NCBI GenBank assembly: GCA_042568575.1
Contig: JBHPIO010000012.1
Span: 1 to 36,604, forward strand
Length of the DNA stretch: 36,604 nt
Reading direction: 5' to 3'
Origin: Patescibacteria group bacterium
Lineage (GTDB): Bacteria > Patescibacteriota > Gracilibacteria > UBA1369 > PNNO01
The position numbers and the translations under genes were made by a program. How positions within the stretch are numbered: position 1 is the stretch's first letter; each line of letters opens with the position of its first letter. Positions 2,304 to 21,470 of this stretch are shown here, piece after piece. Under the pieces are notes generated by a model. That model saw only the letters and a list, made by a program, of their open reading frames with translations. It made no database searches and had not been told where the DNA came from.

Positions 2304-2306
2304 TTT

Positions 2307-3257: not shown

Positions 3258-3259
3258 AC

Positions 3260-3288
3260 TTGAAAAAACACGTATTTTCTGATATAAT
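3260..3288 (+). promoter_or_regulatory. sigma70-type promoter for the pilin-PKD gene
   Basis: TTGAAA (3260-3265), 17 nt spacer, TATAAT (3283-3288) with extended -10 TG, 23 nt upstream of ATG 3312. Confidence 0.65.
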
Positions 3289-3311
3289 TAATCAATAAAA
3301 TAAATATAAAT

Positions 3312-6300: not shown

Positions 6301-7787
6301 CTTCTTCAACAACAATTAACGTTAATGTAATTGGAGAGCTTCCAACTTTGCAGGCATTTACAGCTGTACCTCAGCAAACTGATTTAACAACTCCTGTGAA
6401 AGTTAAGCTCGAAGCCATTGGTGCTAGTGATCCGGACGGACAAATAGTTAAATACTTATGGTGGTATTACGATGCAAGAGACCCTCAATTAACAATGGGG
6501 CACACAATCACACAAACACCTTCTGCGAGCGTTACAATTGGAACACGCGGCGTTGAAGGCGAAGAAATGACATATAAATTTGGTCTTCAAATGACTGACC
6601 AGGAGAATTTCGATGTAGATGTTATGGATGTACTGGACGAAGGCATGATCCCATCATTAGATGTGGTTAATGGCCCTAATGATATTCCGGTATCAAAATT
6701 CAACGTTGATAGAACAAGTATCATGATTGGTGAAACTATCAACTTTACAAGTAGCTCTTCAGATCCTGATGGAAGGATCGTTCAATATATTTGGGATTTT
6801 GAAGGTGATGGATTTGGAAACAACAAAGCAACAAGTCTTTCTACAATCTCTCATACTTATGACACACCAGCAATTGATGGAGTGAACGTTAGATTAAAAG
6901 TTGTTGATGATAACTTTGCAGAATCTATTTCATTGCCGGTTAAAGTATTTGTTGACACAGACGCAGAGGCGCCTGTAGCTGCATTCAAAACTGAGCAAAC
7001 TGGTAAAAATACTATGCACTTTATTAATAATTCGGCAGCAGATGTCGAAAATGGAGCTGTACTTGCTAAGTATACTTGGGACTTTGACGTAAGTTCTGAA
7101 CTTGATAGTGCAGATAGCGATGGAGACGGGGTTAGAGACAACGATACTGACTCAGCTGATTTTGAACCAACATTCACATACGATGAAGATGGAATCTATA
7201 GAGCAAAATTAACTATTGAAGATAACTTTGGAAATACAAGTGAGGTAATTAATTTTGTTAACGTTAAGCCTGCTGCAGGAACAATAACAACAACAGAAGA
7301 AGACTTGAAAGCAAATTTTGTAAGTACTCCAAAAGTAAGTCCAGAAGATAATTCTATTCATTTATCTGGAGATTTTGATGAAGTTAGTTTTGATTTCACT
7401 AAATCAACAGGAAGCGTAATCAGATATGTTTTCGATGATAATGTTTATGTTGATTCAAATGATAACGGTAGAAAAGCGGATGACGAGGATTATGTATCAA
7501 CAAAACCTGGAGTTTATACAACTACATTTAATTCAGAAACTGATAGAATCAAAATTCGATTAACAGTTTATGACGATGAAGGACGTGTTGATATAAAGGA
7601 AATCCGTATTGTGTTTGATGAAGACGAAAGCGATCTTGGAGCGAACGTACTTGGAGGCATACATCAATCTGCAATTCCTGCAATAGTTGTAAGTATCGTG
7701 TTATTTGCTATAGTGAGTTTAAGTCTTTATATGCATGTATTACGATATGAACCAGTGCGTATAAATTCTAAAAAACGTAAAAAATAA
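3312..7787 (+). CDS. Large surface protein: signal peptide + pilin-like hairpin + helical region + ~10 PKD/Ig-like domains + C-terminal TM
   Basis: IYGGFLYVTAAGAEEQTTKGKK pilin motif. Repeated WDFGDG / SxDPDGxIVxYxW PKD motifs. DSDGDGVRDND Ca-binding-like motif. C-terminal hydrophobic helix followed by SKKRKK. Confidence 0.85.
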   Translation: MAILRKIKKHFGLLFVTALLLSVFVVPQTASADLCDQLADKTGGFFSCGEGETSFTQFQGGLTPPSTEGYDPSLVQETNLRDYIVNIVNFVLGFLGLVAMVIVIYGGFLYVTAAGAEEQTTKGKKSIMYAVIGIVIILISFALVNTLIGGLGKGTDAGVGTGQLSGSAPDQLTGDQTQNVQRLFFLASSQVERAAKDLATTYSHYIDVDDTLADLTSVPPADTQQQVTIFLNDMKRALRNVVSSAGDLSRSAEQAKMAEDQVDIWLRATEAQLARETESDIGDVDYWKFWQADPQLADFQGAIMSLTVGLEDANLLDFHDAVSDIKFELEDLKIQLENSGFVDTQGTDFELFYDDAIESLDALLIGAPDNILIVDALTALSDLHTVVQNIQFVAAIITADVDDGNGPLIVNFDALRSVRPDYQTINEDDIYWDFGDGSVAEGRFAVSHVYRKTGTYVVKMTIDGDAANNIAAGVAFKDVVVRPPASQINLKVNIGDRDLGYLSQYKDGFLTTDRNRFNVTLTEARDIGIIFDASESRGGFQSEQQQEAGETYIQTIAWDFGDGTDSIMGEMVAEDVQTHYYGEQGTYPVVVEVTDSRGIRDRKVFEVVVDSPAARIYVQPGAKAKINEQISFDAGNSASDGGQIVGYDWQIINTPLHYTADQSEESFNETFENPGVYNVSLTVTDNVGDSATDTTNLLIESKAPEAKFTYNIPDDSKPHIYELDGTKSFDPDGNINEGTYTYKWTVAAIDPDYDFVDENGAIDEQGHLKNRTYIKFYKIGEYPITLDVNDFNEPENPGVPESQTINVNSILDIMFNETDVTSAILNNNSEAEVTLTGISENGVAYEWDFGDNTSTTTGDIIAGQTTATHKYTSSGTYDVRLTVFDKEDNENTVKRRVMIGEADSPLAVISIKVDGEELFDLSEGVTVNRKSVIEFSADKALNRDGTGRRLGYQWDFGDTQRSTQKIITHKYSDLSPTEPGYYTATLKVVDKNDLTRTSSTTINVNVIGELPTLQAFTAVPQQTDLTTPVKVKLEAIGASDPDGQIVKYLWWYYDARDPQLTMGHTITQTPSASVTIGTRGVEGEEMTYKFGLQMTDQENFDVDVMDVLDEGMIPSLDVVNGPNDIPVSKFNVDRTSIMIGETINFTSSSSDPDGRIVQYIWDFEGDGFGNNKATSLSTISHTYDTPAIDGVNVRLKVVDDNFAESISLPVKVFVDTDAEAPVAAFKTEQTGKNTMHFINNSAADVENGAVLAKYTWDFDVSSELDSADSDGDGVRDNDTDSADFEPTFTYDEDGIYRAKLTIEDNFGNTSEVINFVNVKPAAGTITTTEEDLKANFVSTPKVSPEDNSIHLSGDFDEVSFDFTKSTGSVIRYVFDDNVYVDSNDNGRKADDEDYVSTKPGVYTTTFNSETDRIKIRLTVYDDEGRVDIKEIRIVFDEDESDLGANVLGGIHQSAIPAIVVSIVLFAIVSLSLYMHVLRYEPVRINSKKRKK

Positions 7788-7799
7788 TCATATAAATTT

Positions 7800-10244
7800 A
7801 TGGATACAAATTCACCTGAAAATATGAAACCAGAGGATGCGGCAAATGCGCCACAAACTCCTGAAAACCAATCGGTATCAGATTTTGGAACGCAGCCAGC
7901 TCAGCCAAGTCAGCCACAGGCTGCACCTGAGCAACCGGCAGCACCACAGCAGCCTGAAGTTCCTGCTCAGCCTAAACCGGCTCCAGCGGAACCAGCTTCA
8001 GTGCCAGAAGCACCTGCTCCAGAGGCTCCAAAACCAGAACCAGTTGTGCCAGAGGCTCCTGCAGTAAAACCTGCAATTGAAACTCCTAAGGCACCAGCAG
8101 TAAAGCCAGCCCCAGTAGCAAAACCGGCTGCAGCAGTAAAAGCAGCAAAAAAAATACCGGCAGGTAAAAGAGTATTAACAAAGGATGAGATAATGCAAAG
8201 AGAATCATCACGAAATAAAAAGATAATCATGGGATGTGGAGGATCATTTGGATGTGCATCAATTCTTCTTATTGTTCTTATTTTTGTATTTGTCGGACAA
8301 GGTGCAGCAGGATCGAGCGCTCTAGCAGGTGCTCTTAGCCTTGATCAAGCTTCACTAGTGAATACGCTTGTAACGATTGTGAACCTATTCTTTGGACTAG
8401 GTGCATTTATCACATTCATTATGGCTGTAGGAGGAATCTTCAAGGCTGTAATGGCTCGAAAAGACGACTCTATTGCAAAGAAAAAAGGATATGTACTTTC
8501 AGGTGCTTCATTTGGAGTATTTATCGTTATTATTATGTTGTGGATTGGAGCATGGTATTACCTAAATGAACAAAGGGGACCATCTCAACCACAAACATTT
8601 ACAACAATTCAAACAACACCGGCTGAAACTCTTAACTTAACAGCGCCGGTAGAAATTACATTCGACGCTTCTCAATTGCCTTACGACTCAAGAAATTACG
8701 ATGTAATCTCTTATTTCTGGGATTTCGGTGATGGGTCAGCAGGTGCAGGAAGCAATGTTGAATCTCACAAATATGAAAGAAAAGGCTCAGGAAGATATGA
8801 TGTTAAATTAACACTAACATTTAAACATAAAACAACAGGTGAAGAAGCTACTGACTCAATTGAACATATAGTGTCAATTGCCGACGAAAAAGTTAATGCA
8901 GTCTTTGAGGCTGACGTTGAATCGGGAACAGCACCTCTGACAGTTTCATTTGATGGAAGCGAATCAACAGATCCAGATGGGACAATAGAAACATACGCAT
9001 GGGAAATAGATGGTGGTGGATTCCAGGAGGATGAAGCAACTTATTCTTACACATTCGAACAAGTGGGGGACTATACAGTTCGACTAAGAGTTACTAATAC
9101 TAAAGGTGATTATGATATTGCAGAACAAGTGATTTCAGTTACACAAGGTGATCAGCCTTCTGCTGTGATTGATATCCTAAATGCAGATAACGATAAATAT
9201 TATGTTGATCAAAATTATACGTTTGATGCATCTAGTTCAACTAGTCCAGCAGGCGCTATTACTAAATACGAGTGGGATTTTGGTGATGGTACTGCTAAGA
9301 AGAAAACACGAACTTCTCAACATTCATTCTCAGCTGAGGGTGTATATAAAGTAGTTTTGATTGTTACAGACGAAAAAGGAAATACTATGGAATCAACAAA
9401 AGATCTTAATGTTACGACTGCTGCGTCTTCTCCGAAGGCAAGCATGAAAACGGTTCCTGCAAAAGAAAATGCAGATGATATCTTTATCGAAGGAACGATT
9501 CCTTTTGAGGTTAATTTCGATGCAACAGGCAGTACAGATCCTGATGACGATATCGTAGATTACAAATGGGATTTTGACGGAGATGATGAATTTGATGCAA
9601 CTGGGGAAACAGCTGCATGGGTTTTCCAGACAGCCGGTAGCTATAATGTTAAATTAACTGTTATCGATTCAGCTGGATTTGAAAGCAGAGACGTGCTTCT
9701 TGTGAAAGCTCTTTCTAAGGGGCTTGAAGCACAAGTAGTCGCAGATCCGGTTTCTGGAGTAGTTCCTTTAACTGTTGAATTCGACGCTTCTGGATCAACA
9801 TATTCAGATGGGCAAATCGTAAGTTATGAATGGGATTTTGGTGATGGGACATTACCAAGAAGTGACGTTGGACAGGTAACTTATAAATATACAAAAATTG
9901 GAAACTTTAATGCTACTGTAAAAGTTCGAACAAACGATGGTAAAGAAGAGAAGGTAGAGATTTTGGTTAGTGTAAGACAAGTACCTCTTAAATCATGTTT
10001 TGAACCAACTCAGACAGTAGGGGATGCACCACTTCTGACTACATTCAATCCACAATGTGCTACCGGTACAATCGCGAAATACAGATGGGACTTTGGTGAT
10101 GGAGAAACTTCAGCTGAACGAAAACCAACTTATACATATTCAACTCCAGGAAGTTATGAAGTAGTTCTGGAAGTTGCAGATGCACAAAACGTAGTTGATG
10201 TTTCGTCACAATTTATAACTGTAACAGGACAATTAGTTAACTAA
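7800..10244 (+). CDS. Pro/Ala-rich N-terminus + 3 TM helices + six PKD domains
   Basis: PAQP/APEAP/PAVKP repeats, three hydrophobic segments, then six PKD signatures (YFWDFGDG, YAWEIDGG, YEWDFGDG, YKWDFDGD, YEWDFGDG, YRWDFGDG). Confidence 0.85.
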   Translation: MDTNSPENMKPEDAANAPQTPENQSVSDFGTQPAQPSQPQAAPEQPAAPQQPEVPAQPKPAPAEPASVPEAPAPEAPKPEPVVPEAPAVKPAIETPKAPAVKPAPVAKPAAAVKAAKKIPAGKRVLTKDEIMQRESSRNKKIIMGCGGSFGCASILLIVLIFVFVGQGAAGSSALAGALSLDQASLVNTLVTIVNLFFGLGAFITFIMAVGGIFKAVMARKDDSIAKKKGYVLSGASFGVFIVIIMLWIGAWYYLNEQRGPSQPQTFTTIQTTPAETLNLTAPVEITFDASQLPYDSRNYDVISYFWDFGDGSAGAGSNVESHKYERKGSGRYDVKLTLTFKHKTTGEEATDSIEHIVSIADEKVNAVFEADVESGTAPLTVSFDGSESTDPDGTIETYAWEIDGGGFQEDEATYSYTFEQVGDYTVRLRVTNTKGDYDIAEQVISVTQGDQPSAVIDILNADNDKYYVDQNYTFDASSSTSPAGAITKYEWDFGDGTAKKKTRTSQHSFSAEGVYKVVLIVTDEKGNTMESTKDLNVTTAASSPKASMKTVPAKENADDIFIEGTIPFEVNFDATGSTDPDDDIVDYKWDFDGDDEFDATGETAAWVFQTAGSYNVKLTVIDSAGFESRDVLLVKALSKGLEAQVVADPVSGVVPLTVEFDASGSTYSDGQIVSYEWDFGDGTLPRSDVGQVTYKYTKIGNFNATVKVRTNDGKEEKVEILVSVRQVPLKSCFEPTQTVGDAPLLTTFNPQCATGTIAKYRWDFGDGETSAERKPTYTYSTPGSYEVVLEVADAQNVVDVSSQFITVTGQLVN

Positions 10245-10251
10245 TAAATAT

Positions 10252-10365
10252 ATGTCATTAAGCAAAGGTCAAAAAAAAGTTGTTAGAATTGTAGGGTTAC
10301 TTGCGATTATTGCATTAGTTCTTACGAGTCTTGCACCAGCATTGGCAGTGCTACTTGCTCAATAA
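10252..10365 (+). CDS. Small 37-aa single-pass membrane peptide (not in the ORF track)
   Basis: ATG 10252 to TAA 10363-10365 encodes MSLSKGQKKVVRIVGLLAIIALVLTSLAPALAVLLAQ. It starts 7 nt after the previous stop, has a basic N-terminus plus hydrophobic helix, and fills the intergenic gap. Confidence 0.65.
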   Translation: MSLSKGQKKVVRIVGLLAIIALVLTSLAPALAVLLAQ

Positions 10366-10425
10366 AAAAAGCTGGCTAAAATAAGCCATTTATATAAAAA
10401 TCAAAAATAAATAACAAAAAACAAT

Positions 10426-13068
10426 ATGGACAATCCACTCAACATTAAGCCACCGCAGGACGATGCGGTAGTAAAACCTTCTAAAAAAACAAAACGAAGG
10501 CGAAAAGGTTTAGGTTTACCCGCAATATTATCAATATTCGGGGGAATCCTAATAGTAGGTGCCGTTGTTGGTACTCTCATCTATTCTCAAAGTCCTGACA
10601 GACTTACAGGGAGCCTTATGAGAGCACCCGTAACGTTTGATCAACAAGTAGGCTCTGATTTAAAGTCAGTTGATGCCACTCGTAGTGCAGGTACTTTTAC
10701 AACTTTTGATTCAAGTGTTGCTACTACTACATGCCCAGAAGGACTTGATCTAACTTCGACTACAGATCCAACTACTGGTGCGGCACTTAATTTATGTATT
10801 TGTCCAGATATGTACTACCCGGTTATTACTGCTGGAGCGACAGGTGCGCAAAGTCTTACAACAGGATTTAGTGGTACAGCAACATCAATCAAATGCGAAC
10901 CATTTGTTTGTGGTATGACACAAGAAGAGGTCGCAAAAGCTGGCGAAGATTATGGAACCTTGTTAACTTTGCAAGGAGTGTCGGAATCATTAGTTTCAAC
11001 TTTAAAAACAAAATTAGTTAGTGCATATGAAACGTGGGAAGATAAAAATCCGGCGTGTCAGCCAGCTAAACCGTGTCCAGATATGGAATTTTTCTTAGAC
11101 AGAACAAACCAGTGTTATTCACTGTGTGATCTTCCAGAACAATACTATAATTCGGTTTCTGTTTTGCAGAATGCATACAATTCAGATAGAACAGATCCAG
11201 ATGTGAAAGACGAATTAAAACAAATAATTGATAGTGCTAGTAGCGGAGTTAGCTATAGCACATGGTATGCAAATACTTGTGAAGAAAAAACTATTGAGAA
11301 GAGACCTACAAAAACATGTGACGATGTGATGAAAGAACTACAGGAAGCATATGCGAAGAAAGATAAAGATGCCTATGCTGCTGCGCTTGCGACATTAATA
11401 GAAAATAATTGTATTACAGAATGTGATGAGAATTTCTTTATGGCAATTTACAGTATTGTAAATCCAGCATTCTTAAGCAATTCAGCAAGCTCTCTTTCGT
11501 TTGCGACAGCAAATTCAAGTCCAGCCGAAAACTATATAATTAAATATCTTGAAGGAAGTTGTACAGATTGTGATAAAACTTACGGTCTTATTACTTTGTA
11601 TGCCCTTGAGCTAAGTACTCAGGATAATGCAGATCTTTCACTATTAGAAAAATTGCTTCAAGTATTCTTAAAGAATTGTCAGTGTGTTGAACTTGAAACT
11701 CTACTCGATTCACCAAGTTTTGATGCAAATGATTACTTTAATGTGACTGCAGTTCCAGGAAATACAGCAATTAAAGCAGGAACTCTTGAACTTACAGATA
11801 GTTTCAAATCTGCAGCTTCATCATCACAGCTAAACAGCGCTTCAAGTTTCAGTACTCTTGAGAAGAGCACATCAAATACAACAAATACTGCTATAGATAT
11901 AACTAAGAAAGCGACTGATACTTCGGACGCAGTAATTAATCTGGTAGAAAAAGATACCAGTAGCACATTTACCACAAGATACATAAACTCACTTCTATTT
12001 GAGGAAGCTTATGCTCAAACAAGAATCAACAGTAACGTTTCAACGGGCCTTTCAGAAGACGTAAGGGCATTAATAGAAAGCATGTATGACGATTCTGAGT
12101 GTGGTGAAGAAGAAAAGGTCCCTGAATGTAAAGATTTAGATATCGTTTCTCCTACTACTAATTCAGCAATGACTGTGACTGGGGATTTTGATCCAGATGA
12201 CGATATTTTAGAGATTCAAGTAAGTGGTGCAGATGCAGTTCAAGAATATAAATATTCGACATCTGACAACGATCTTGAGCTTGTTGATATGTCTGATGAC
12301 TTGAAAAAAGGACTAAAGGGTGGGCCTGCTCCAGGTCAATCTATTGCTATCGATGTTGTTGCCATAGATGCAGCTGGTAATGAATTGAAACAATGTACAG
12401 ACCGACTTACAGTAAGCAGAGATAAACCAAAAGATGATGGAGGACCAACACCTAAAGTTTGTAAATCATTAAAGATTACAAAACCAGTTGATGCTCAAGA
12501 CGGAAGTGTTACCCTTGATGCAGCTGGATACGATGATGAGACATTACTAATCGAAGTTGTTGATGAAGGAGAAGTTGTTGATTACAGATTCACTTCAGTT
12601 AACGATAACGATAAAATTACTTTCAACGGTGAACAGACTTTAGATACAACAAATACAGCTATTAAACTCTCAGCTGATTTGGATGCGGGAGATGAATACA
12701 TTGTAACTGTGTGGGCACGCGGAGAAGATGATGCCGGAAATCTAGTTGGACTAGGGGACTGTCATGATTCGTTTACTATCAAACGACCTTCAACGCCAAC
12801 AGATACACCTGATGATCCACCAGAAGATCCTCCTACTACAACTACAATCAGTCAGGGTGATCCGGAACCAGAAACAGAAGAGCTAGAAATTCCTGAGGTT
12901 GAAGTAACTCAACCCACTTCTGCTCCTGAACCAACAACAGAGCCAGTTCAAGTTGAAGAACTGCACGCAGCAGCACCAATGGTTCCAAAAAGTGGACCAG
13001 CTGCTCTAATCTATCTTGTTGGAGCTGGACTTGGAGGTGTATTAGTTACACGTCGAAGAAAAAAATAA
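10426..13068 (+). CDS. Cys-rich surface protein with N-terminal TM and C-terminal LPXTG-like sorting signal
   Basis: KRRRK + TM at the N-terminus, about 22 Cys, a Pro/Glu/Thr stalk, and the C-terminus VPKSGP-AALIYLVGAGLGGVLV-TRRRKK. Confidence 0.8.
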   Translation: MDNPLNIKPPQDDAVVKPSKKTKRRRKGLGLPAILSIFGGILIVGAVVGTLIYSQSPDRLTGSLMRAPVTFDQQVGSDLKSVDATRSAGTFTTFDSSVATTTCPEGLDLTSTTDPTTGAALNLCICPDMYYPVITAGATGAQSLTTGFSGTATSIKCEPFVCGMTQEEVAKAGEDYGTLLTLQGVSESLVSTLKTKLVSAYETWEDKNPACQPAKPCPDMEFFLDRTNQCYSLCDLPEQYYNSVSVLQNAYNSDRTDPDVKDELKQIIDSASSGVSYSTWYANTCEEKTIEKRPTKTCDDVMKELQEAYAKKDKDAYAAALATLIENNCITECDENFFMAIYSIVNPAFLSNSASSLSFATANSSPAENYIIKYLEGSCTDCDKTYGLITLYALELSTQDNADLSLLEKLLQVFLKNCQCVELETLLDSPSFDANDYFNVTAVPGNTAIKAGTLELTDSFKSAASSSQLNSASSFSTLEKSTSNTTNTAIDITKKATDTSDAVINLVEKDTSSTFTTRYINSLLFEEAYAQTRINSNVSTGLSEDVRALIESMYDDSECGEEEKVPECKDLDIVSPTTNSAMTVTGDFDPDDDILEIQVSGADAVQEYKYSTSDNDLELVDMSDDLKKGLKGGPAPGQSIAIDVVAIDAAGNELKQCTDRLTVSRDKPKDDGGPTPKVCKSLKITKPVDAQDGSVTLDAAGYDDETLLIEVVDEGEVVDYRFTSVNDNDKITFNGEQTLDTTNTAIKLSADLDAGDEYIVTVWARGEDDAGNLVGLGDCHDSFTIKRPSTPTDTPDDPPEDPPTTTTISQGDPEPETEELEIPEVEVTQPTSAPEPTTEPVQVEELHAAAPMVPKSGPAALIYLVGAGLGGVLVTRRRKK

Positions 13069-13069
13069 T

Positions 13070-13924
13070 CTAGGAAAACCGTTTCCATAATTTATCAGGA
13101 AGTTGGACTATATGCTTTTGCAGTCCAACTTCTTTTGGTGTAAATCCAAGAGCAAGGCAGAGCAATTGGCTCATATGCAAAACAGGCATCTTGAACTTCT
13201 TTTGATACAAGTCCATTTGAGTGTGGCAGAACGGGCAGTTTGTAACAATAAGGTCAGCATTTGACTCTTTAGTGTTACTTAGATATTTTCCACTCATCTT
13301 AGCGGCATCTTTCTTATGAGTAAGAGTGACGTGAAAGCCACAGCAATCAAGTTTTCCATCAACATCAACAGGGATTGCACCAAGTGCTTTAACAAAACTC
13401 TCAAAATTATCAGGATTTTCAGATTCCTGGTGTTGTCCTACAATTTTTGAAGGTCTAAGAATATGGCAGCCATAATACGTGGCCACTTTTAGGCCTGTTA
13501 GTGGGACTTTTACATGTTTCTTGATCTTTTCTAGACCGTAATCTTGAGTAAGCACCCAAAGCCAGTGCTTAATATCCAATTTGGCCTCGCACTTCATGTG
13601 AAAACGCTTAAGATATTGATTCGATTCTTCAAGCTTCTCTTTGTTTTCTTTTAATTCAATTAAATCCTTTCGAAGATTAACAACGCAAGTACTGCAAATA
13701 GTCATTATATCGAGATTTTGCTTTTCACTTAGAGCGAAATTCCGCGCATTTAGAGCAGTATTAAAGTCTTTGTTGGCCTCACGGACAACTCCAGCACCGC
13801 AACAGCTGAACTCCGGGATATCAACCAATTTTATGCCCAGCTTATCGCATGCAAGTCTCGTAGCTTTATCGTATTCGCTTGTAAGTTGTTTGGAAGCGCA
13901 GCCGGGAAAGTAAGCGTATTTCAT
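13070..13924 (-). CDS. CCG-domain (HdrB-like) subunit of an E-type succinate dehydrogenase/fumarate reductase (SdhE-type anchor)
   Basis: YFPGC, SCCGAG, CSTC, YYGC, DCCG and CPFC form two CCG domains. ATGA overlap with the upstream Fe-S subunit. Confidence 0.85.
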   Translation of the reverse strand: MKYAYFPGCASKQLTSEYDKATRLACDKLGIKLVDIPEFSCCGAGVVREANKDFNTALNARNFALSEKQNLDIMTICSTCVVNLRKDLIELKENKEKLEESNQYLKRFHMKCEAKLDIKHWLWVLTQDYGLEKIKKHVKVPLTGLKVATYYGCHILRPSKIVGQHQESENPDNFESFVKALGAIPVDVDGKLDCCGFHVTLTHKKDAAKMSGKYLSNTKESNADLIVTNCPFCHTQMDLYQKKFKMPVLHMSQLLCLALGFTPKEVGLQKHIVQLPDKLWKRFS

Positions 13925-14922
13925 AGATTGTTGAGGTTATCTCTTTCCTTATTTCTCTTTTTTTGTTTTTCATTTTGAGTTCTTTTAACATCTCTTCCAA
14001 GTTCAGCGATCTCTCCATGGTTCTTGATTTTTTTCATGAAGAAAGGAGGCAACTTTCCTTTGAAGAATAATTTGATTGCGGTGGGCAGTTCTTTCATCAC
14101 CCTAATAAATCCAAAAGTACCTACAGGCAGCCATGCTTCAGATAATTCTCCATACTTTTTAACTGATTTCTCAAATGTTCGTGTATGACGCGCCCCATCA
14201 TTATGAATCAGCCCTTCTTTAATGCTTTCTTCGCGAAGCTCAGAAATAACTTCTTGTGGTTCAATATTCATAGGGCAGTTTTCTGTTGAACGTTCACAAT
14301 GAGCACATGCCCAAATTTGCTTATCCACAAGTTTTTTAAGCCGCTCTTTCTTTTTGCCGTCGCGAACATCAAAAATATATCTGTGGGAAAGAACAGACGC
14401 AGCCGGTCCCAAATATTTTCTGTTTGCTTCTCGTGAAGGACAGTCAGAAAAACATGCCGCACACCATATACATTCGCTCGATTTCTCTATTTTATCAGCA
14501 TCTTCTGGAGTAATTCGATTCTCAGCCACGAGTTTTCCTGAATTTTTCTTTGCTTCAATCCACGGATTTGTACCCTTCATTTCATCGTAAAATGTCTCCA
14601 TATCCACAACAAGATCTTTAAGCACGGGCAAATTTCCAAGTGGCTCTATCTTGATTTCTCCAAATTTTAGAACTTCATCGTGCACAGATGCTTTACATGC
14701 AAGCTTTGCTCTGCTGTTTATACGAATTGCACACGAACCACAAATCCCGGCTTTACAAGATTGGCGGAAAGACAAAGTCGCATCGACGTTGTTCCGAATC
14801 GACAATAATGATTCAAGTACCGTTTCCCATGGTTGCACAACAAGTTCATACTCTTCAACGTATGATTCCTTGTCTTTTTTAGGATTAAACCTGCTAATTT
14901 TAAATCTAATCTTTTGGCTCAA
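13921..14922 (-). CDS. sdhB: Succinate dehydrogenase/fumarate reductase iron-sulfur subunit with C-terminal extension
   Basis: SCKAGICGSC..LAC [2Fe-2S] motif, DLVVD, CIWCAACFSDCP, third motif CAHCERSTENCP. TTG start overlaps the end of sdhA. Confidence 0.9.
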   Translation of the reverse strand: MSQKIRFKISRFNPKKDKESYVEEYELVVQPWETVLESLLSIRNNVDATLSFRQSCKAGICGSCAIRINSRAKLACKASVHDEVLKFGEIKIEPLGNLPVLKDLVVDMETFYDEMKGTNPWIEAKKNSGKLVAENRITPEDADKIEKSSECIWCAACFSDCPSREANRKYLGPAASVLSHRYIFDVRDGKKKERLKKLVDKQIWACAHCERSTENCPMNIEPQEVISELREESIKEGLIHNDGARHTRTFEKSVKKYGELSEAWLPVGTFGFIRVMKELPTAIKLFFKGKLPPFFMKKIKNHGEIAELGRDVKRTQNEKQKKRNKERDNLNNL

Positions 14923-16606
14923 TTGGTAGGGGATAACTGGTTATTGTAACGTCTTTGTATGTAACTTTTGGATCATCGTCGCCTTGATAATGTGTAAGGG
15001 AATGCTTATGAAACTTCTTATTATCTTTAAGTGGGAAATCTTTGCGTGCATGAGCCCCTCTGCTTTCTTTTCTTTTTTCAGCGCTCACAAAAAACGCACG
15101 TGAAATATCTAAGAGATTGCGAAGCTCAAGCGCTTCATAAAGCGCATAATTGTAGCAATTCTCGGAGCTTCCAAGCGTAACATTTTCATATTCCTCTCGT
15201 AATTTATATAAACCTTCCAGCCCTTTTGTTAAAGAAGTGTGACTTCTAAATATCCCGGCATTCTCCTCAAGTGTTTTAGTTAGTTCATGTTTGATTTTTG
15301 AATAATGAGTCCCTTTTTCACGTTTCAATAGTGTTTCGATTTCTTTGCTAGTCTCTTTAACAGGACTTTTTTCGATTTTAGATTCTGATTCATTTTGTGC
15401 ATATAAAGATGCAACTTCTCCGGCTCTTTTTCCAAATACAACGGTTTCCATAAGAGAATTCCCGCCAAGCCTGTTAGCTCCATGAAGATTCATACATGAA
15501 CACTCGCCGGCAGCATATAGGCCTTTAACACTTGTTTCGCAATCTTTATTAATGTCGATTCCGCCCATTAGGTAATGTGCCGCGGGACGAACAGGGATAG
15601 CTTCTTTTGTACAATCAATATCGGCAAAATCTTTAACAAGTTTATAAACTTGAGGAAGTCGCTTCTTAATTCTTTCTGCTCCCAAATGGGTGAGATCAAG
15701 TAAAACGGCACCGTGCACACCATGTCCGGAATCTATTTCCTGCTGAATTGCCTGAGCAACAACATCTCTGGATGCAAGCTCCATCTTTTCTGGAGCATAT
15801 CGTTTCATAAAGCGTTCACCTTTATTATTTATAAGATAGCCGTTTTCGCCCCGTGCAGCTTCCGTAACAAGTATGCCTTTGTACGCAAGGCTTGTAGGAT
15901 GAAACTGAATGAATTCGATGTCTTTTAGAGGGACGCCAGCTCTATATGCGATTCCAACTCCATCACCGGTGCTGGAAGTAGCATTCACGGTGTCTTGGAA
16001 TAGGTTTCCAGCCCCTCCGGTAGCAATAACGACTGACTTAGCCTTAATCTCGATTACTTCCGCAGTATGCATATCTAAAGCCAAAATTCCCTTAACTTTG
16101 CCTTCTTCAACTATTAAAGAATGGAAATGCCATTCGCTATGAATCGGGATCTCGTGACGCATCACTTCGGTTAATAGAGTTGAAAGCAGTATGTGCCCAG
16201 TGTAATCACGAGCAAAACAGGTTCGTGGGAACATCCCTCCACCAAATGGACGCTGAGCAATTGTCCCATCTTCATTTCTGCTAAATACCATTCCCATGTG
16301 TTCAAGCTCAATAACACATTCCGGTGCTTGTTCACAAAAGTATTCAACAGCATCTTGATCGTTCAAAAATTCACCACCTTTAACTGTGTCTCGAAAATGA
16401 TGCTCGATAGTATCTTCTCCATCTTCAGGGTGATTGTTTAGGGCGGCGTTCATGCCTCCTTGAGCCATACAGGTCTGACTACGTAAAGGGAAAAGCTTAG
16501 AAACGACTGCGCACGAAACGTTTTTAGTCTTTGCAACTTCAAGTGCGGCACGTAATCCCGTAGCACCACCTCCAATTATCACGACATCGTACGAAAACGT
16601 GCTCAT
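14906..16606 (-). CDS. sdhA: Succinate dehydrogenase/fumarate reductase flavoprotein subunit
   Basis: GGGATG Rossmann motif, AQGG, QFHPT, TEAARGE, ELASRDVV, HYLMGG, HGANRLGGNSL, ESRGAHAR. The likely start is ATG at 16606 (MSTFSYDVVIIGGG), not 16669. Confidence 0.92.
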   Translation of the reverse strand: MSTFSYDVVIIGGGATGLRAALEVAKTKNVSCAVVSKLFPLRSQTCMAQGGMNAALNNHPEDGEDTIEHHFRDTVKGGEFLNDQDAVEYFCEQAPECVIELEHMGMVFSRNEDGTIAQRPFGGGMFPRTCFARDYTGHILLSTLLTEVMRHEIPIHSEWHFHSLIVEEGKVKGILALDMHTAEVIEIKAKSVVIATGGAGNLFQDTVNATSSTGDGVGIAYRAGVPLKDIEFIQFHPTSLAYKGILVTEAARGENGYLINNKGERFMKRYAPEKMELASRDVVAQAIQQEIDSGHGVHGAVLLDLTHLGAERIKKRLPQVYKLVKDFADIDCTKEAIPVRPAAHYLMGGIDINKDCETSVKGLYAAGECSCMNLHGANRLGGNSLMETVVFGKRAGEVASLYAQNESESKIEKSPVKETSKEIETLLKREKGTHYSKIKHELTKTLEENAGIFRSHTSLTKGLEGLYKLREEYENVTLGSSENCYNYALYEALELRNLLDISRAFFVSAEKRKESRGAHARKDFPLKDNKKFHKHSLTHYQGDDDPKVTYKDVTITSYPLPIEPKD

Positions 16607-16673
16607 AAAGTTCGAAACAGTTAATGCGGTTTGCCGTTTTATATTAATGAAAAACCATATATAAAACAAACTT

Positions 16674-16705
16674 AAAAGCCGCCCGACAACATATCAGGCG
16701 GCTTT
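16674..16705 (-). terminator. Rho-independent terminator of the SLH gene
   Basis: Inverted repeat AAAGCCGCC (16675-16683) / GGCGGCTTT (16697-16705), with a T-run on the minus strand, 16 nt after the stop at 16722. Confidence 0.7.
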
Positions 16706-16721
16706 CCCAATTTAAACTAAA

Positions 16722-18536
16722 TTATACAGCTTCAGGTGCTACATAATCAGCACAATCAGATTCTGCAAGGTCGTTGTAAATAGCAACATCTACAATCTTT
16801 GCAAACTCAGCACGTGTGATAGTAGATCCACCTTCAAAGTGTTTTTCACCTTCAACATCTCTACCTGAGAAGATTCCACATTGATACGCTTTTTCTGCTT
16901 CATTAGCATACCATTCATCACCAGTGATATCCGGGAATGAATATGTGTCATATTCTGGAACTTCGAATCCAAGAACACGTAATACTACAGCAGCAGATTC
17001 TCCACGTAGGATTGATAGATCAGGACCAAAAGTTCCATCAGGATATCCGTTGAAGTATCCAAGTTCTTGAGCAGCATCTACGTAAGGGCAGAACCAGTCA
17101 GCCATGTCTACATCAACAAAAACATCAAAGAAAGAATCACAATCAGGAGTAGCGTCTCCATTACCTAAAGTAACGATTTTAGAAGCTTCTCCTCTTTTGA
17201 TTTCATCATCAGGACGGAACATCCCAGTTTCAGAATCTCCAGATACGATGTCAGCATTGAATAGTTCATCAATGAAGTCTTCAGCCCAGTGACCAGCTGC
17301 ATCTTCAGGACCTTCAGATGGAGGTTCTTCTGCAGGAACAGGTTCTGGAACGAAAGGTGTCACTCCGTTTGCTTCGTCAAGAACTGCTTGCATTGCAGCA
17401 ATATCCTGATCAAGACATTCTCCCGCATCTTGAAGTGCTTGTAGTTCTGCAAGACATTCTTCAAGTTCAACAGCAAGAAGATCTATTTCTAAGTTTTTAT
17501 CTTCGATTAGATCTAATACGTCAAAATATTCAGTAAGAGCATCAAAATAGTCATTCAATAGAGTATCTAATTCAGCATTTAATGCTTCTTCAGAAGGTAA
17601 CTGCTCAGAACTATGAGTTTGCCAGTAGTCATCCAAATTTTGGATCATATCCTCAATTTGACCTTCGTTTGTGAAACACCATTCAACATTTCCAAAGTTG
17701 TGAGCGATTCCCCAAGCTTGACCGGAAGCAGGCTCGAAATCTTCACAGTCTGCACCGTGTTGACCTCCTGCATCTTCAACCATTTGTTCGAAGTCGGCTT
17801 TAAGTTGAGCCCAGTCCGCTAGTTGTTCGTAGATACCGTCGATTTCAGTTTCAAGATCTGTAAGTTCAGCATCAAGAATATCTGCTTCAAGTTCAAGAGC
17901 AGCAAGATCATCTAAAGCAGTATCAAGATCGTTAGCGATAGTTTCGCAGTCAGGACACTCTACAGCTGCAGGACAGTTTGTGTCTTCACATTCAAGAATC
18001 AATACAATAAGAGCATCAAGTAAATCAAGTAAGTCTTCAATGTCATCCGCATCAGTATCCGCATCAGTAATCAAGTCGAGAAGCACATTCATTACGTCTT
18101 CCCAGTCTGTAGTTGTCAGTGGATCAAGCGGTGAAAAGAATCCAAAGAAGTCATTGTACTGGGTTTCATCAGCGAAACAATATACTGATCCATCGTAATT
18201 AAAAGATGACCAGTAAGGGAGAACAGTTGCACTGTCTTCACAGGTTGTACCTGTAGAAACAAATGCTAGTCCTTCCATTGCAGTAACAGGATCAACTACT
18301 TCTAGTAGTCCTTCCATATTAGTTACTTGTGTCTCAACATCTGTAATGATGCTGCCAAGGTCGGCATATGCCGCATCATAATCGTCTTGATGTGTTTGAC
18401 AGTCAACACACGTCGTTGGATCTTCTTGTGCTGGCGATGCAGGTGTAGCAAAAACAGACGCTCCATTTGAGATAAGAAGCGTTGCTACCAAAATCACGCC
18501 AACAACAGGAGAAAGCAGTTTTGCTAGTTTTCTCAT
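16722..18536 (-). CDS. S-layer homology (SLH) domain protein with acidic, Cys-paired coiled-coil N-terminal region
   Basis: Signal peptide (ASVFA) and three SLH repeats (GHWAEDFI..FRPDDEIKRGE; WFCPYV..GYPDGTFGPDLSILRGE; FPDI..WY..TITRAE). Confidence 0.88.
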   Translation of the reverse strand: MRKLAKLLSPVVGVILVATLLISNGASVFATPASPAQEDPTTCVDCQTHQDDYDAAYADLGSIITDVETQVTNMEGLLEVVDPVTAMEGLAFVSTGTTCEDSATVLPYWSSFNYDGSVYCFADETQYNDFFGFFSPLDPLTTTDWEDVMNVLLDLITDADTDADDIEDLLDLLDALIVLILECEDTNCPAAVECPDCETIANDLDTALDDLAALELEADILDAELTDLETEIDGIYEQLADWAQLKADFEQMVEDAGGQHGADCEDFEPASGQAWGIAHNFGNVEWCFTNEGQIEDMIQNLDDYWQTHSSEQLPSEEALNAELDTLLNDYFDALTEYFDVLDLIEDKNLEIDLLAVELEECLAELQALQDAGECLDQDIAAMQAVLDEANGVTPFVPEPVPAEEPPSEGPEDAAGHWAEDFIDELFNADIVSGDSETGMFRPDDEIKRGEASKIVTLGNGDATPDCDSFFDVFVDVDMADWFCPYVDAAQELGYFNGYPDGTFGPDLSILRGESAAVVLRVLGFEVPEYDTYSFPDITGDEWYANEAEKAYQCGIFSGRDVEGEKHFEGGSTITRAEFAKIVDVAIYNDLAESDCADYVAPEAV

Positions 18537-18704: not shown

Positions 18705-18779
18705 TGGGGCGTGGCCAAGTGGTAAGGCACCTGGTTTTGGTCCAGGCATTCGGGGGTTCGAGTCCCTCCGCCCCAGCCA
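18705..18779 (+). tRNA. tRNA-Gln(UUG), CCA encoded
   Basis: Acceptor stem TGGGGCG/CGCCCCA, D-arm GCCAAGTGGTAAGGC, anticodon stem CCTGG/CCAGG with TTG at 18737-18739, T-loop GGTTCGAGTCC, 3' GCCA. Confidence 0.97.
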
Positions 18780-18782
18780 TTC

Positions 18783-18882
18783 AGTTCCACTTGCTACGAG
18801 TGAGTCCTTTTTGAGGACTCATCGAGTAGGAAGAGAACTAATCTCGAGCTCGTAAGAGCGAGAGGCGAGCAAGCTTCTTCTA
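18783..18882. repeat. GC-rich nested palindromic (REP/MITE-like or terminator) element downstream of the tRNA
   Basis: Hairpin TGAGTCCT-TTTTG-AGGACTCA (18801-18821), hairpin GCTC-GTAA-GAGC (18848-18859), outer complementarity CTTGCT (18790-18795) / AGCAAG (18868-18873). Confidence 0.55.
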
Positions 18883-18890
18883 TTAATACA

Positions 18891-18920
18891 GCCTCCCAAC
18901 ACAAACAACAGAATTTCTTC
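18891..18920 (+). repeat. Left direct repeat of the oah-had cassette
   Basis: GCCTCCCAACACAAACAACAGAATTTCTTC, 26/30 identical to 21564-21593. Confidence 0.8.
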
Positions 18921-18929
18921 AATTTAAAT

Positions 18930-18979
18930 TTGCCAAATCTGTATTTTCTACTATAGAATTCTGATTGTGTTCTTTGACA
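18930..18979 (+). promoter_or_regulatory. Putative promoter plus boxA-like antitermination motif of oah-had
   Basis: TTGCCA (18930-18935), 18 nt spacer, TAGAAT (18954-18959). TGTTCTTTGACA (18968-18979) matches E. coli rrn boxA TGCTCTTTAACA at 10/12. Confidence 0.45.
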
Positions 18980-19131
18980 TATTTAGTTTTTAGCAGGCAA
19001 TTATTTGTATTCGAATAAATCGGGCAAAATCCAAGACATTCAGGTTTTAGGGCTTTGATCCGGCTTATCGGGTTCAAATGTCCTGCCTGCTATACCAACC
19101 CAACAATGGGAGAAAGCGCAGAGAACAAACA

Positions 19132-20316
19132 ATGCACGAAGACACACTTTTTGCAAAGACCCCTTGGGTCAAGAGAACGGGTGAGTTGGTAGATCATCGG
19201 TTGTTCAGCGATGAATGGCTCAACGGCGAAGCGCCGGGGGTCAACTACGAGCTGAAACCGGTGGTGAATCCGAAGACCGGCGAGGAAATGCCGGACTGCT
19301 ACTACGCCGTGGTGACGCTCAACAACCCTCGGCAGTTCAACAGCTACACGACCGCGATGGTCAAGGGCGTGATCTCGGCGATCACCAACGCGAGTTTGGA
19401 TCGACGGGTGAAGGCCGTGGTGTTTACCGGCACCGGTGACATGGCATTTTGTACCGGCGGTAATACCGAGGAGTACTCTTCTTTCTACGCCCTCAGGCCC
19501 GAGGAGTACATGACCTACATGCAACTCTTCATCATGATGGTGGACTCCATCCTGAACTGCTACAAGCCAGTCATTTGCCGGATCAACGGTATGCGCGTGG
19601 CTGGCGGTCAGGAGATTGGCATGGCGTGCGATTGGTCGTACGCCAGCGACTTGGCCATCATCGGTCAGGCCGGTCCCCGTCACGGTTCTGCAGCAGTGGG
19701 AGGTTCGAGTGACTTCCTCCCGCACATGCTGTCCGCGGAGCTCGCCATGGAAAGCTGCCTCGCTTGCGAGATGTGGAGCGCCTACAAGATGCGTCATCTC
19801 GGACTCATCATGGATGCTTTTCCGGTCTTGCGACGAGGCGATGAATGGATTGTCAACCCGACGGTTATCACCGAGGAGTATGTTCGGGCGGGCAAGGTCG
19901 TACTCGGTGAGCCCAAGACCGGCGATGAGCTGAAGGCTGGCTACGCGCTGATCAAGCAAGCTCGCAACCCCGACGACGACGAGATCGTGATCGACTTCGC
20001 GAGGCTGGACGCTGCGGTAGTTGCCAAGGTCTGGCAACTGACCCATCTGTTCCCGGGCTGTGAGCGGCAGACCTTTATGCAGATCCGTTCGCAGAAAGCT
20101 GCTACGTGGAATCAGCTCAAGCATCTCCACGCGATGTGGCTCGGTCCCAATCAGATGTTCGAAGGCGCTGCCGGTTTCGCGGCCTTTGCCAATCGCAAGG
20201 CCACCGGCAGGGTTGACCAGATCGACTGGGCAGCCCTACATGGTGCCATTTCGCGCGGCGAGATGGTCGATGCAGAGCTGTTCGCGAAGATCCTTCCGCA
20301 TCCGCCCAAGGAGTAG
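19132..20316 (+). CDS. oah: 6-oxocyclohex-1-ene-1-carbonyl-CoA hydrolase (ring-opening, crotonase fold; Oah/BamA/BzdY)
   Basis: Family-specific motifs NNPRQFNSYTTAMVKGV, AFCTGGNTEEY, KPVICRINGMRVAGGQEIG, GQAGPRHGS and CEMWSAYK. Likely start is ATG 19132 (MHEDT..). Confidence 0.93.
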   Translation: MHEDTLFAKTPWVKRTGELVDHRLFSDEWLNGEAPGVNYELKPVVNPKTGEEMPDCYYAVVTLNNPRQFNSYTTAMVKGVISAITNASLDRRVKAVVFTGTGDMAFCTGGNTEEYSSFYALRPEEYMTYMQLFIMMVDSILNCYKPVICRINGMRVAGGQEIGMACDWSYASDLAIIGQAGPRHGSAAVGGSSDFLPHMLSAELAMESCLACEMWSAYKMRHLGLIMDAFPVLRRGDEWIVNPTVITEEYVRAGKVVLGEPKTGDELKAGYALIKQARNPDDDEIVIDFARLDAAVVAKVWQLTHLFPGCERQTFMQIRSQKAATWNQLKHLHAMWLGPNQMFEGAAGFAAFANRKATGRVDQIDWAALHGAISRGEMVDAELFAKILPHPPKE

Positions 20317-20363
20317 TTCAGACAACACCAACCACACAAGTGTGGAGGAAGCGAGACAAACCT

Positions 20364-21470
20364 ATGTCGTTACCCGACGTAATCAACTGTTGGCTTCTAA
20401 CCAAGCCAGGCAACCCTCGAGACGGTACCCCTCCGGAGTTCGAACGCGGAACCCTCCCCATGCCGGAGATCGAAGAAGGCTGGGGCGTGGTTCAGGTGGC
20501 CGGTTGTGGCGTGTGCCACACCGACATCAGCTTTGCCTACATGGGAGTGCCAACGGTCAACGGTCCGCCCAAAGGTTCTCCTCTCGTCCTCGGACATGAG
20601 GTCAGCGGCACGATGGTCGCTGGACCTGAAGACCTGATCGGCAAACAAGTGATCGTGCCCGCGGTTATTCCGTGCCACGACTGTGTGGCCTGCAACAGAG
20701 GACGCGAAAACCTCTGCGTGAATATGCAGATGCCCGGCAACAGTATGGGTCAGTACGGCGGCTTCGCCGACTACATGCCGGTCCCGGTGCACGACCTCTG
20801 TGTGATTGATGATTGCAACGGCATCCCCCTGGAGCATCTGGCTGTTGTGGCTGACGCTGTGACCACCCCTTATCAGGCGGCCATACAGGCCGATGTCATG
20901 CCCGGCGATGGCGTAATCGTGACGGGTCATGCCGGCGGTATCGGCAAACACATGGTGCAAATCTGCAAAGCCCTCGGCGCCAATCACGTCATCGGTTTCG
21001 ATCCGAGTGAGCGTCGAGATGAGATGAAGGAGTTCGGCCTTTCCCATGCCATCGACTCGACCATGGAGGGCGGTTTCAAAGCGGTCAAGGGTGCTTTCAA
21101 GGCCTACTGCAAGGAGCACGGCCTCAATCCCTATTGGGGATGGAAGATCTTCGAGTGCAGCGGTACCGCCGCCGGCCAGAGCCTGGCCTTTGGTTTGCTT
21201 CCGAAGGGTGGCACTCTCATGATCGTGGGTTTCACCCCCGACAAGGTTGAGGTTCGCCTCTCGAACCTGATGGTCTTCGGGGCAAAGGTCGAAGGTGTCT
21301 GGGGCTGCAACCCCGTGCACTATCCCAAGGCGCTTAAGCGAGTGCTGGACGGTTACGTCAAGATCAGCCCCCTCGTTCAAACCCACCCGGTAAGCCAGTT
21401 CCTCGAAGCGCTCGAGGAGGCACACGAAAGCCCTCCCTGGCAGCGCATCGTGCTCACCCCGGACTGGTAG
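20364..21470 (+). CDS. had: 6-hydroxycyclohex-1-ene-1-carbonyl-CoA dehydrogenase (Zn-dependent MDR; Had/BamQ/BzdX)
   Basis: AGCGVCHTD, GHE, structural Zn CHDCVAC..C, MPGN, VVADAVTTPYQA, WKIFECSG, RLSNLM, WGC, and adjacency to oah. Likely start is ATG 20364, with GGAGG at 20344-20348. Confidence 0.92.
   Translation: MSLPDVINCWLLTKPGNPRDGTPPEFERGTLPMPEIEEGWGVVQVAGCGVCHTDISFAYMGVPTVNGPPKGSPLVLGHEVSGTMVAGPEDLIGKQVIVPAVIPCHDCVACNRGRENLCVNMQMPGNSMGQYGGFADYMPVPVHDLCVIDDCNGIPLEHLAVVADAVTTPYQAAIQADVMPGDGVIVTGHAGGIGKHMVQICKALGANHVIGFDPSERRDEMKEFGLSHAIDSTMEGGFKAVKGAFKAYCKEHGLNPYWGWKIFECSGTAAGQSLAFGLLPKGGTLMIVGFTPDKVEVRLSNLMVFGAKVEGVWGCNPVHYPKALKRVLDGYVKISPLVQTHPVSQFLEALEEAHESPPWQRIVLTPDW

Follow-up and report, generated by a model that had tools for sequence, protein, structure and literature searches.

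The three-gene operon sdhABE, which encodes a relative of complex II, was studied in a 36,604-nucleotide stretch of DNA from a Patescibacteria group bacterium (assembly GCA_042568575.1, contig JBHPIO010000012.1). This stretch, called the window hereafter, is the entire contig C4 of the genome. The operon encodes a flavoprotein (SdhA), an iron-sulfur (Fe-S) protein (SdhB) and an HdrB-like CCG protein (SdhE). On balance, and with moderate confidence, the three proteins are read as a functional, cytoplasm-facing and anchor-less descendant of type E complex II that would work only as a quinone-independent fumarate reductase. The reading is built on changes shared by a clade of proteins from the candidate phyla radiation (CPR), namely a Gln in place of the His that links flavin adenine dinucleotide (FAD) to SdhA, and the loss of the third Cys from the third Fe-S cluster motif of SdhB. 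The clade-wide Gln, the lost Cys and their origin within CPR are what is new here, and no description of this enzyme was found in the parts consulted of the literature on succinate dehydrogenase or fumarate reductase of Peregrinibacteria, Patescibacteria and CPR. The features concerned are the following.

14906..16606, minus strand: sdhA/frdA flavoprotein gene, 566 amino acids, without signal peptide (TIGR01812, FAD_binding_2 and Succ_DH_flav_C)
13921..14922, minus strand: sdhB iron-sulfur gene, 333 amino acids, TTG start, with a C-terminal extension of ~95 amino acids (Fer2_3 and Fer4_8)
13070..13924, minus strand: sdhE, HdrB-like CCG gene, 284 amino acids, without transmembrane helix (PF02754 twice)
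16475..16477, minus strand: CAG codon of Gln44 at the covalent-FAD His position, within RSQTCMAQGG (16454-16483), from the alignment to 1NEK_A
14272..14307, minus strand: third Fe-S cluster motif of SdhB, CAHCERSTENCP, with Ser for the third Cys, from the alignment to E. coli FrdB
16674..16706, minus strand: terminator-like hairpin between the SLH gene and sdhA, with a 15-pair stem, 7 G-C pairs and a T-rich tail (consensus match only)

When SdhA is aligned to its E. coli counterpart (1NEK_A), Gln44 of RSQTCMAQGG takes the place of the FAD-linking His45 in RSHTVSAQGG. Residues were counted in the 120 best matches of SdhA and of SdhB, the SdhA set being drawn from a collection of 5.8 billion proteins. 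Among the 120 SdhA matches, Gln was found in 21, which are exactly the CPR clade, and His in 98, the last being a fragment that lacks the region. The histidyl-linked covalent FAD that characterizes type E enzymes is thus not expected in any of the 21 clade members. The substitution does not stand alone, as three adjacent flavin-site residues were altered together in the clade (HTGA to QTCM). Passages of Maklashina et al. 2022 (PMC9557727) state that succinate cannot be oxidised without the covalent flavin link, which is 'absolutely required', that engineered non-covalent variants lower the FAD potential by ~90-150 mV, and that homologues lacking this bond (soluble fumarate reductases, L-aspartate oxidase) only reduce fumarate. 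Taken with this rule, the Gln at the covalent-FAD position argues for a one-way fumarate reductase, and the fumarate-reducing direction proposed in an earlier note on this DNA is backed by the substitution throughout the clade. With FAD bound non-covalently, its potential would be low and succinate would not be oxidisable; electrons from a non-quinone donor would pass through SdhE and/or the clusters of SdhB to FAD and then to fumarate.

A second type E trait, the four-Cys motif CxxCxxCxxxCP of a second [4Fe-4S] cluster, is missing from CAHCERSTENCP. Among the 120 best SdhB matches, the third Cys is lost in 27, all of them from the CPR clade (27/27 members; Ser in 9, Ala in 18), four Cys are present in 92 and no motif was found in 1. 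CxxCxxCxxxCP was seen in other CCG-partnered SdhB, from Woesearchaeota (locus L013), Sedimenticolaceae (L113) and Campylobacter Mfr, the E. coli-type motif being Cx5Cx3CP. SdhE of the clade was also found to carry a deletion of ~9 residues after 'DLYQ', a segment that is present in every other aligned SdhE and HdrB.

The membership of the three subunits in their families was examined in parallel. SdhA scores 717.2 bits with the SdhA/FrdA subfamily model TIGR01812 (cut-off 567.3), matches E. coli SdhA 1NEK_A with an E-value of 6e-140, and keeps the catalytic and dicarboxylate-binding motifs HPT(236), ASRD(278), HYLMGG(344) and GANRLGG(376) in that alignment. SdhB passes NF004616 (240.6 bits, cut-off 228); its C-terminal extension is covered by matches to NF009226 and NF009227, both below cut-off, and is by these comparisons typical of CCG-partnered (type E) SdhB. 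For SdhE, the closest solved relatives are HdrB chains (E-value 1e-46), and all ten CCG motif cysteines are kept in the alignment with HdrB and other SdhE. The best NCBIfam models are the MFR 'anchor' SdhE (236.5, cut-off 500) and HdrB (TIGR03288, 213, cut-off 345.15). An identity as HdrB was rejected on this score, on the neighbouring sdhB and sdhA, and on an HdrA-like flavoprotein not being found. SdhE is the sole CCG protein in 4/4 Sdh-positive genomes searched. Its relatives among genome contigs are mostly HdrB beside HdrC/HdrA and are uninformative for Sdh, and the loci L247-L249 hold the classical SdhCDAB.

No anchor gene was found in the operon, and Sdh_cyt (PF01127) was found in 0/5 Sdh-positive genomes searched. 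SdhA bears no signal or twin-arginine (Tat) peptide: its N-terminus is MSTFSYDVVIIGGG, with the Rossmann motif at residue 5, and an RR motif was not found in the longer TTG-started frame either. The earlier note had claimed both the absence of a cytochrome b anchor and that of a Tat signal, and these claims hold. Its 'E-type' label stands for the SdhA, the extended SdhB, the CCG subunit and the cytoplasmic, anchor-less arrangement, but not for the covalent FAD or the four-Cys third cluster.

The operon is restricted to a small group of genomes. Across the whole order, sdhE was found in 8/205 genomes, which belong to three genera of a single family. In a sample of 41 genomes of relatives it is likewise present in 8, this genome and 7/12 of the same family (genera g1, g3 and g4), and in 0/28 genomes of other families. 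The 13 family genomes are denoted G000-G012, with G000 for this genome, G001 for its congener and G006 for a closed genome of 1.37 Mb, which is among the carriers. The A-B-E order and the same adjoining pilin/PKD cluster were kept at all seven relatives' loci fetched (7/7); a locus shared in this way, also with a closed genome, is therefore not a binning artefact. Between G000 and G001, the ratio of nonsynonymous to synonymous substitution rates is 0.059 for sdhA, 0.079 for sdhB and 0.035 for sdhE, so that sdhABE is under strong purifying selection, sdhE being the best conserved of the three subunit genes.

The order in which these changes arose can be approached through the closest SdhB outside the clade, P0148 (51% identity), which is encoded on a 12-kb metagenome contig (L246; 34.6% guanine plus cytosine, GC). 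This contig carries sdhA-sdhB-sdhE followed by a convergent cluster with a 782-amino-acid PKD protein, 42% identical to that at 7800-10244 of the window. The lineage of L246 keeps the His (P0014, RSHTGAAQGG), the four Cys (CSHCESCVAQCP) and the SdhE segment. Two SdhA trees were made, a quick IQ-TREE run (LG+G4) on 46 chosen rows and a FastTree on 101 rows. With IQ-TREE, the Gln clade has a support of 100 and its sister is (P0014,(P0013,P0016)), with an SH-aLRT of 96. With FastTree, the Gln clade also stays together (98) but branches as the sister of the 70 other rows in the main group, so that the His-bearing P0013/P0014 group lies apart from it, which speaks against the order of events given below. 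The IQ-TREE placement is preferred because the synteny agrees with it. Since the syntenic sister lineage retains both residues, the changes are taken as derived, and we conclude from these comparisons that the ancestor probably held a canonical type-E-like operon at the same locus, with His to Gln, Gly to Cys, Ala to Met and Cys to Ser/Ala following later, inside CPR. No outside donor lineage could be named from the trees, the nearest named SdhA, at 50-52% identity, including those of Aquificota.

Several known systems can be compared with this enzyme. The type E SdhABE(F) of Sulfolobus and Acidianus, as described in passages of Hamann et al. 2009 (PMC2754724), shares with it the SdhA, the extended SdhB, the two-CCG, ten-Cys SdhE, the lack of a transmembrane or haem anchor and the cytoplasmic orientation. 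In contrast to type E, Gln replaces the covalent-FAD His here, the third cluster has three Cys and not four, and catalysis is predicted to run only towards fumarate reduction. Moreover, no SdhF gene was seen in the operon: there is no space for a further open reading frame (ORF) within the operon, and no conserved small flanking ORF was found at the locus in 7 relatives. Most carriers are also without the quinone-synthesis marker, and a respiratory chain was not found in the searches made. The MfrABE of Campylobacter and Wolinella (NF042982, NF042952, NF042965) has the same A-B-E gene order and SdhB extension, but the equivalog cut-offs are missed for all three subunits (540.6 vs 1100, 171 vs 600 and 236.5 vs 500). 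The MfrABE flavoprotein carries an export (twin-arginine) signal, unlike the one encoded here. Campylobacter MfrA was placed on a separate long branch in both SdhA trees, and Campylobacter SdhB keeps four Cys.

The thiol:fumarate reductase of methanogens, TfrAB (NF004900, NF004898), is likewise soluble and quinone-independent, its SdhB-like module and flavoprotein being supplied by a CCG module. We think that it may be the closest analogue of the presumed working mode, which would be soluble and quinone-free. The two systems differ in that the Fe-S and CCG modules are fused in TfrB (a 488-position model) and are encoded here by two genes overlapping by 4 nucleotides, and in that the scores stay below the cut-offs (TfrA 541.4 vs 718, TfrB 176.1 vs 385). 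In addition, the methanogen coenzyme M and B thiols are not expected here.

The AB-type and NADH-dependent ABCDE fumarate reductases of Aquificota and Nitrospirota form a third group of comparison, since the SdhA of Persephonella, Sulfurihydrogenibium and Aquifex are among the nearest named non-CPR proteins. These enzymes keep the His, whereas in the present operon the His is lost and A and B are translated together with a CCG subunit. The Hydrogenobacter FrdABCDE is NADH-dependent and has extra NAD(P)H-binding subunits; a GltD-like NAD(P)H subunit was not found here, thioredoxin reductase being the only strong Pyr_redox_2 protein. Passages of PMC13147460 mention several Aquificota and Nitrospirota fumarate reductases that likewise have no known donor subunit. 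Finally, a complex II relative in a CPR genome has a precedent in the respiring Parcubacterium 'Parcunitrobacter', for which parts of PMC5220378 describe a succinate dehydrogenase/fumarate reductase of type B. That enzyme is membrane-anchored and belongs to a full respiratory chain, while neither anchor nor chain was found in the present case.

The host, a metagenome-assembled genome of the Peregrinibacteria, comprises 1.20 Mb in 31 contigs, with 81.8% completeness and 0.19% contamination. Its nearest protein relatives carry the name 'Candidatus Peregrinibacteria bacterium' and its nearest records 'Patescibacteria group bacterium', so that the contig belongs to CPR as previously supposed. The host-like, AT-rich composition noted before was also observed, with a GC content of 40.4% in the operon, 39.8% in the window and 38.3% in the genome. 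In the gene inventory that follows, some counts cover the 13 family genomes, and others five genomes or the 4-5 Sdh-positive ones. Class I fumarase was found in 0/13 genomes, and the Ldh/Mdh C-terminal domain and SucD in 0/5 each; an anabolic 2-oxoglutarate route as in methanogens was rejected on the SucD result. Cytochrome bd was found in 0/5 genomes and a NuoD-like protein in 0/4 Sdh-positive ones, the latter being present only in the Sdh-negative G005. Each genome has a single strong Pyr_redox_2 protein, the thioredoxin reductase (TIGR01292, 346 bits, cut-off 343), and no NDH-2-like or GltD-like flavoprotein was found in the genomes searched. A Pfam scan of 123 G000 ORFs with membrane or redox features gave no quinone enzyme; these are the 136 picked out of 1148 ORFs for at least 6 predicted helices or for Cys or Rossmann motifs, minus 13 that exceed 900 amino acids or lie in the window. 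Energy-related genes include the ATP-synt_ab catalytic subunits (5/5); G000 also encodes an H+-pyrophosphatase as well as subunit I of a V-type ATPase. The earlier picture of a CPR host without tricarboxylic acid (TCA) cycle or respiration is supported in that no fumarase, Mdh/Ldh, SucD, cytochrome bd or SdhC/D was found in the genomes searched, and is blurred by the UbiA prenyltransferase family, which is patchy (4/13: G004, G012, G009 and G011) and does not track Sdh.

It is against this inventory that a quinone-linked function has to be weighed. The enzyme could be a monotopic, membrane-attached quinol:fumarate or succinate:quinone oxidoreductase with an ordinary type E function, using quinones taken up with host lipids, which we regard as unlikely. 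The ABE architecture and extended SdhB are those of type E and MFR enzymes (passages of PMC2754724), the SdhB tail is basic and aromatic, G004 and G012 carry a UbiA-family gene, and parts of PMC8407418 discuss CPR bacteria that have an oxidase but no quinone synthesis. Nevertheless, no other quinone-reactive enzyme was found (cytochrome bd, NuoD-like and NDH-2-like proteins as above, and a class 1B PyrD), the UbiA family was not found in G000, G001, G003 or the closed G006, and two redox features of type E were lost in the clade.

The opposite direction of catalysis appears more doubtful still. As a succinate dehydrogenase, the complex could regenerate fumarate, for example for L-aspartate oxidase (NadB), and this is quite improbable. 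NadA was found in 5/5 genomes and a second full-length FAD_binding_2 gene, presumably NadB, in 12/13, missing only from the incomplete G000; this separate gene also led to the rejection of Sdh as a NadB replacement. SdhA keeps a Gln at what we take to be the position of Gln50 in SdhA and Glu49 in FrdA. NadB can, according to passages of PMC12577380, use fumarate as acceptor in anoxic NAD synthesis. Against such a role, the covalent-FAD His is lost in 21/21 clade members, and enzymes of this kind are reported unable to oxidise succinate (passages of PMC9557727). An acceptor of sufficiently high potential was not found, and NadA and NadB are also present in the Sdh-less relative G005.

That the flavoprotein now acts on a different substrate (some other enoate or, as in NadB, an amino acid) and no longer on fumarate or succinate is very improbable: the joint HTGA to QTCM change, the clade-specific SdhE deletion of ~9 amino acids and a score of 419 bits with the nadB model TIGR00551 would fit it, but this score lies below the cut-off of 452.75, for which an identity as L-aspartate oxidase was rejected, TIGR01812 is passed, the dicarboxylate-binding and proton-donor residues of E. 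coli SdhA are all kept and a separate NadB-like gene exists.

Under the favoured reading of a quinone-independent fumarate reductase, the donor of electrons has to be sought elsewhere. Tentatively, it could be a thiol/disulfide couple, thioredoxin-type or a small thiol, oxidised at SdhE by analogy with the methanogen thiol:fumarate reductase. Reduced ferredoxin or flavodoxin from a 2-oxoacid oxidoreductase, or H2 through a two-subunit [NiFe] hydrogenase, is only slightly less likely; a scavenged quinol is a less probable donor, and the remaining weight falls to something else. A 2-oxoacid:acceptor oxidoreductase was found in 5/5 genomes, with a flavodoxin gene inside its operon in G000, and a ferredoxin gene was found. 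The hydrogenase consists of a 3b-like alpha subunit of 437 amino acids and a short delta subunit of 176, without beta or gamma. It is present in 10/13 family genomes, which are all 8 Sdh-positive ones plus G009 and G011. This pattern fits a supply of low-potential electrons and does not tie the hydrogenase to Sdh.

Further observations were made on the hydrogenases. Each family genome has a single type, [NiFe] in 10 and [FeFe] in 3 (G002, G005 and, as a remnant with stop codons, G007). At G000:C3:7360-13154 (L193:3361-9155), the [NiFe] genes come directly after genes of [FeFe] maturases, HydG (570.7 bits, cut-off 312) and HydE (266 bits, cut-off 254.6), with HydE fused to a HypC domain; H-cluster maturases beside a [NiFe] enzyme are odd. 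No beta or gamma subunit or other Fe-S partner was seen near the [NiFe] genes in the 4 genomes examined.

The origin of the fumarate was considered as well. It is likely internal, as a by-product of PurB and ArgH, to which AspA would add in one relative (G001). Lyase_1 proteins were found in 13/13 genomes, and that of G000, adjoining a SAICAR-synthetase-like gene, was assigned by eye to PurB. A third, high-scoring copy occurs in G001 only; with 618.5 bits it exceeds the cut-off of 510 for aspartate ammonia-lyase, and it misses that of fumC (471 vs 664.75). In this genome (L092, G001:C66:5466-9455) the aspartate ammonia-lyase, a malic enzyme and an amidohydrolase-family gene (NF005365) adjoin each other, a set seen in 1/13 genomes that makes a possible aspartate-to-fumarate route. 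AspA and malic enzyme of G001 were not found in G000 with tblastn. With regard to transport, no C4-dicarboxylate transporter was found among the 123 G000 ORFs; the AEC family was found in 2/13 genomes, DcuAB in 0/5 and a weak DASS-like match in 3/5. As no dicarboxylate transporter is shared, the flux may be small and the fumarate is probably internal. The role is likely fumarate disposal with a modest redox sink, and growth-supporting fumarate respiration is probably not part of it. Of the electron sink suggested in the earlier note, a modest version is thus retained, a large one being doubtful for want of a transporter common to the carriers. A link to dihydroorotate oxidation, which had also been suggested, is unsupported and was rejected: PyrD, found in 12/13 genomes, is in G000 a class 1B enzyme (class-1 model NF005574, 323 bits, cut-off 269) followed by its NAD-binding subunit PyrK (NF000796, 297 bits, cut-off 224).

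A number of points weigh against reading the complex as a quinone-independent, thiol-fed or otherwise soluble fumarate reductase. The Cys two residues past Gln44 in RSQTCMAQGG is conserved in 21/21 clade members and could in principle make a cysteinyl-FAD link. Lys, Phe and Pro abound in the extension of SdhB, through which the complex could attach to a membrane. The quinone-linked SdhE of Sulfolobus and Campylobacter also keep ten cysteines (passages of PMC2754724), and these cysteines are therefore no proof of thiol chemistry. Among protein substrates of CCG enzymes, DsrC and GcvH-like (lipoyl) carriers were each found in 0/13 genomes. In G009 and G011, the [NiFe] hydrogenase occurs in the absence of Sdh. 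A UbiA-family gene is present in G004 and G012, both Sdh-positive, and UbiA is the only quinone-synthesis marker that was searched, the rest of the Men, Mqn and Ubi pathways not having been searched. The TCA negatives are partial in the same way, as no search was made for citrate synthase, aconitase or isocitrate dehydrogenase. Finally, no C4-dicarboxylate transporter is common to the carriers, and the completeness of G000 is just 81.8%.

As to the layout of the locus, the translationally coupled flavoprotein/Fe-S/CCG operon of the earlier note was confirmed as three overlapping minus-strand ORFs, with overlaps of 17 nucleotides between sdhA and sdhB and 4 (ATGA) between sdhB and sdhE. The start of sdhA was set at the ATG at 16606 (MSTFSYDV...) and not at the TTG of the listed frame 14906-16669, because close homologues all begin MS(K/T)FSYDV. 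The 5' neighbour of sdhA is an SLH-domain gene, separated from the operon by the hairpin at 16706-16674; given this predicted hairpin, a consensus match, sdhABE is a putative separate transcription unit. On the 3' side, a convergent gene for 880 amino acids ends one base away from sdhE.

Other observations in the window and the genome can be added. The SLH-domain protein (16722-18536) is extremely acidic, with long Asp/Glu-rich runs, and its gene is followed by the strong terminator-like hairpin. A cluster of T4SS-pilin-domain and PKD-repeat genes occupies 1149-13068, with proteins of 384, 316, 1491, 814 and 880 amino acids. Directly after a tRNA-Gln (18705-18779), a GC-rich island at 18705-21470 (56-59% GC vs ~39% around) holds genes of the enoyl-CoA hydratase family (19078-20316) and the Zn-alcohol-dehydrogenase family (20340-21470), and looks acquired. 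An APC-family amino-acid permease (best subfamily TIGR00909, below cut-off) was found ~1-7 kb from sdhA in genera g1, g3 and g4, at 23015-24304 of the window, L102:3940-5220 and L101:16474-17769. Elsewhere in the genome, G000:C31:24319-26298 (L232:1-1980) encodes a 660-amino-acid fused, FadB-like 3-hydroxyacyl-CoA dehydrogenase/enoyl-CoA hydratase, unexpected in such a genome. G000:C23:75337-90796 (L214) has eight paralogous genes in a run, for ~546-560 amino acids, most without a Pfam family; a treble-clef zinc-finger domain was seen in two of them and in a neighbouring 108-amino-acid ORF.

To our knowledge, accounts of CPR bacteria present them as fermenters that lack respiratory complexes, and a conserved complex II relative in one CPR family raises the question of its purpose. 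A bolder account, which we hold as speculative and rather unlikely, is that a type E complex II, once acquired by a CPR lineage, was reverted there to a quinone-free, low-potential fumarate reductase through loss of the covalent flavin bond and of one cluster ligand, and is now fed by a non-methanogen, thioredoxin-type thiol at SdhE, by ferredoxin/flavodoxin or by the [NiFe] hydrogenase. If true, the enzyme would be a bacterial counterpart of the methanogen Tfr and a worked example of reverse complex II evolution, and the [NiFe] route would make it an H2:fumarate oxidoreductase that operates with no membrane chain. The Gln clade may be seen as the natural equivalent of the His44 mutants of E. 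coli and would offer a dated step in the evolutionary passage between fumarate reductases linked to thiols and those linked to quinones. The identity of the donor would show how redox balancing is achieved in such small cells and might reveal a new substrate of CCG/HdrB-type Fe-S proteins.

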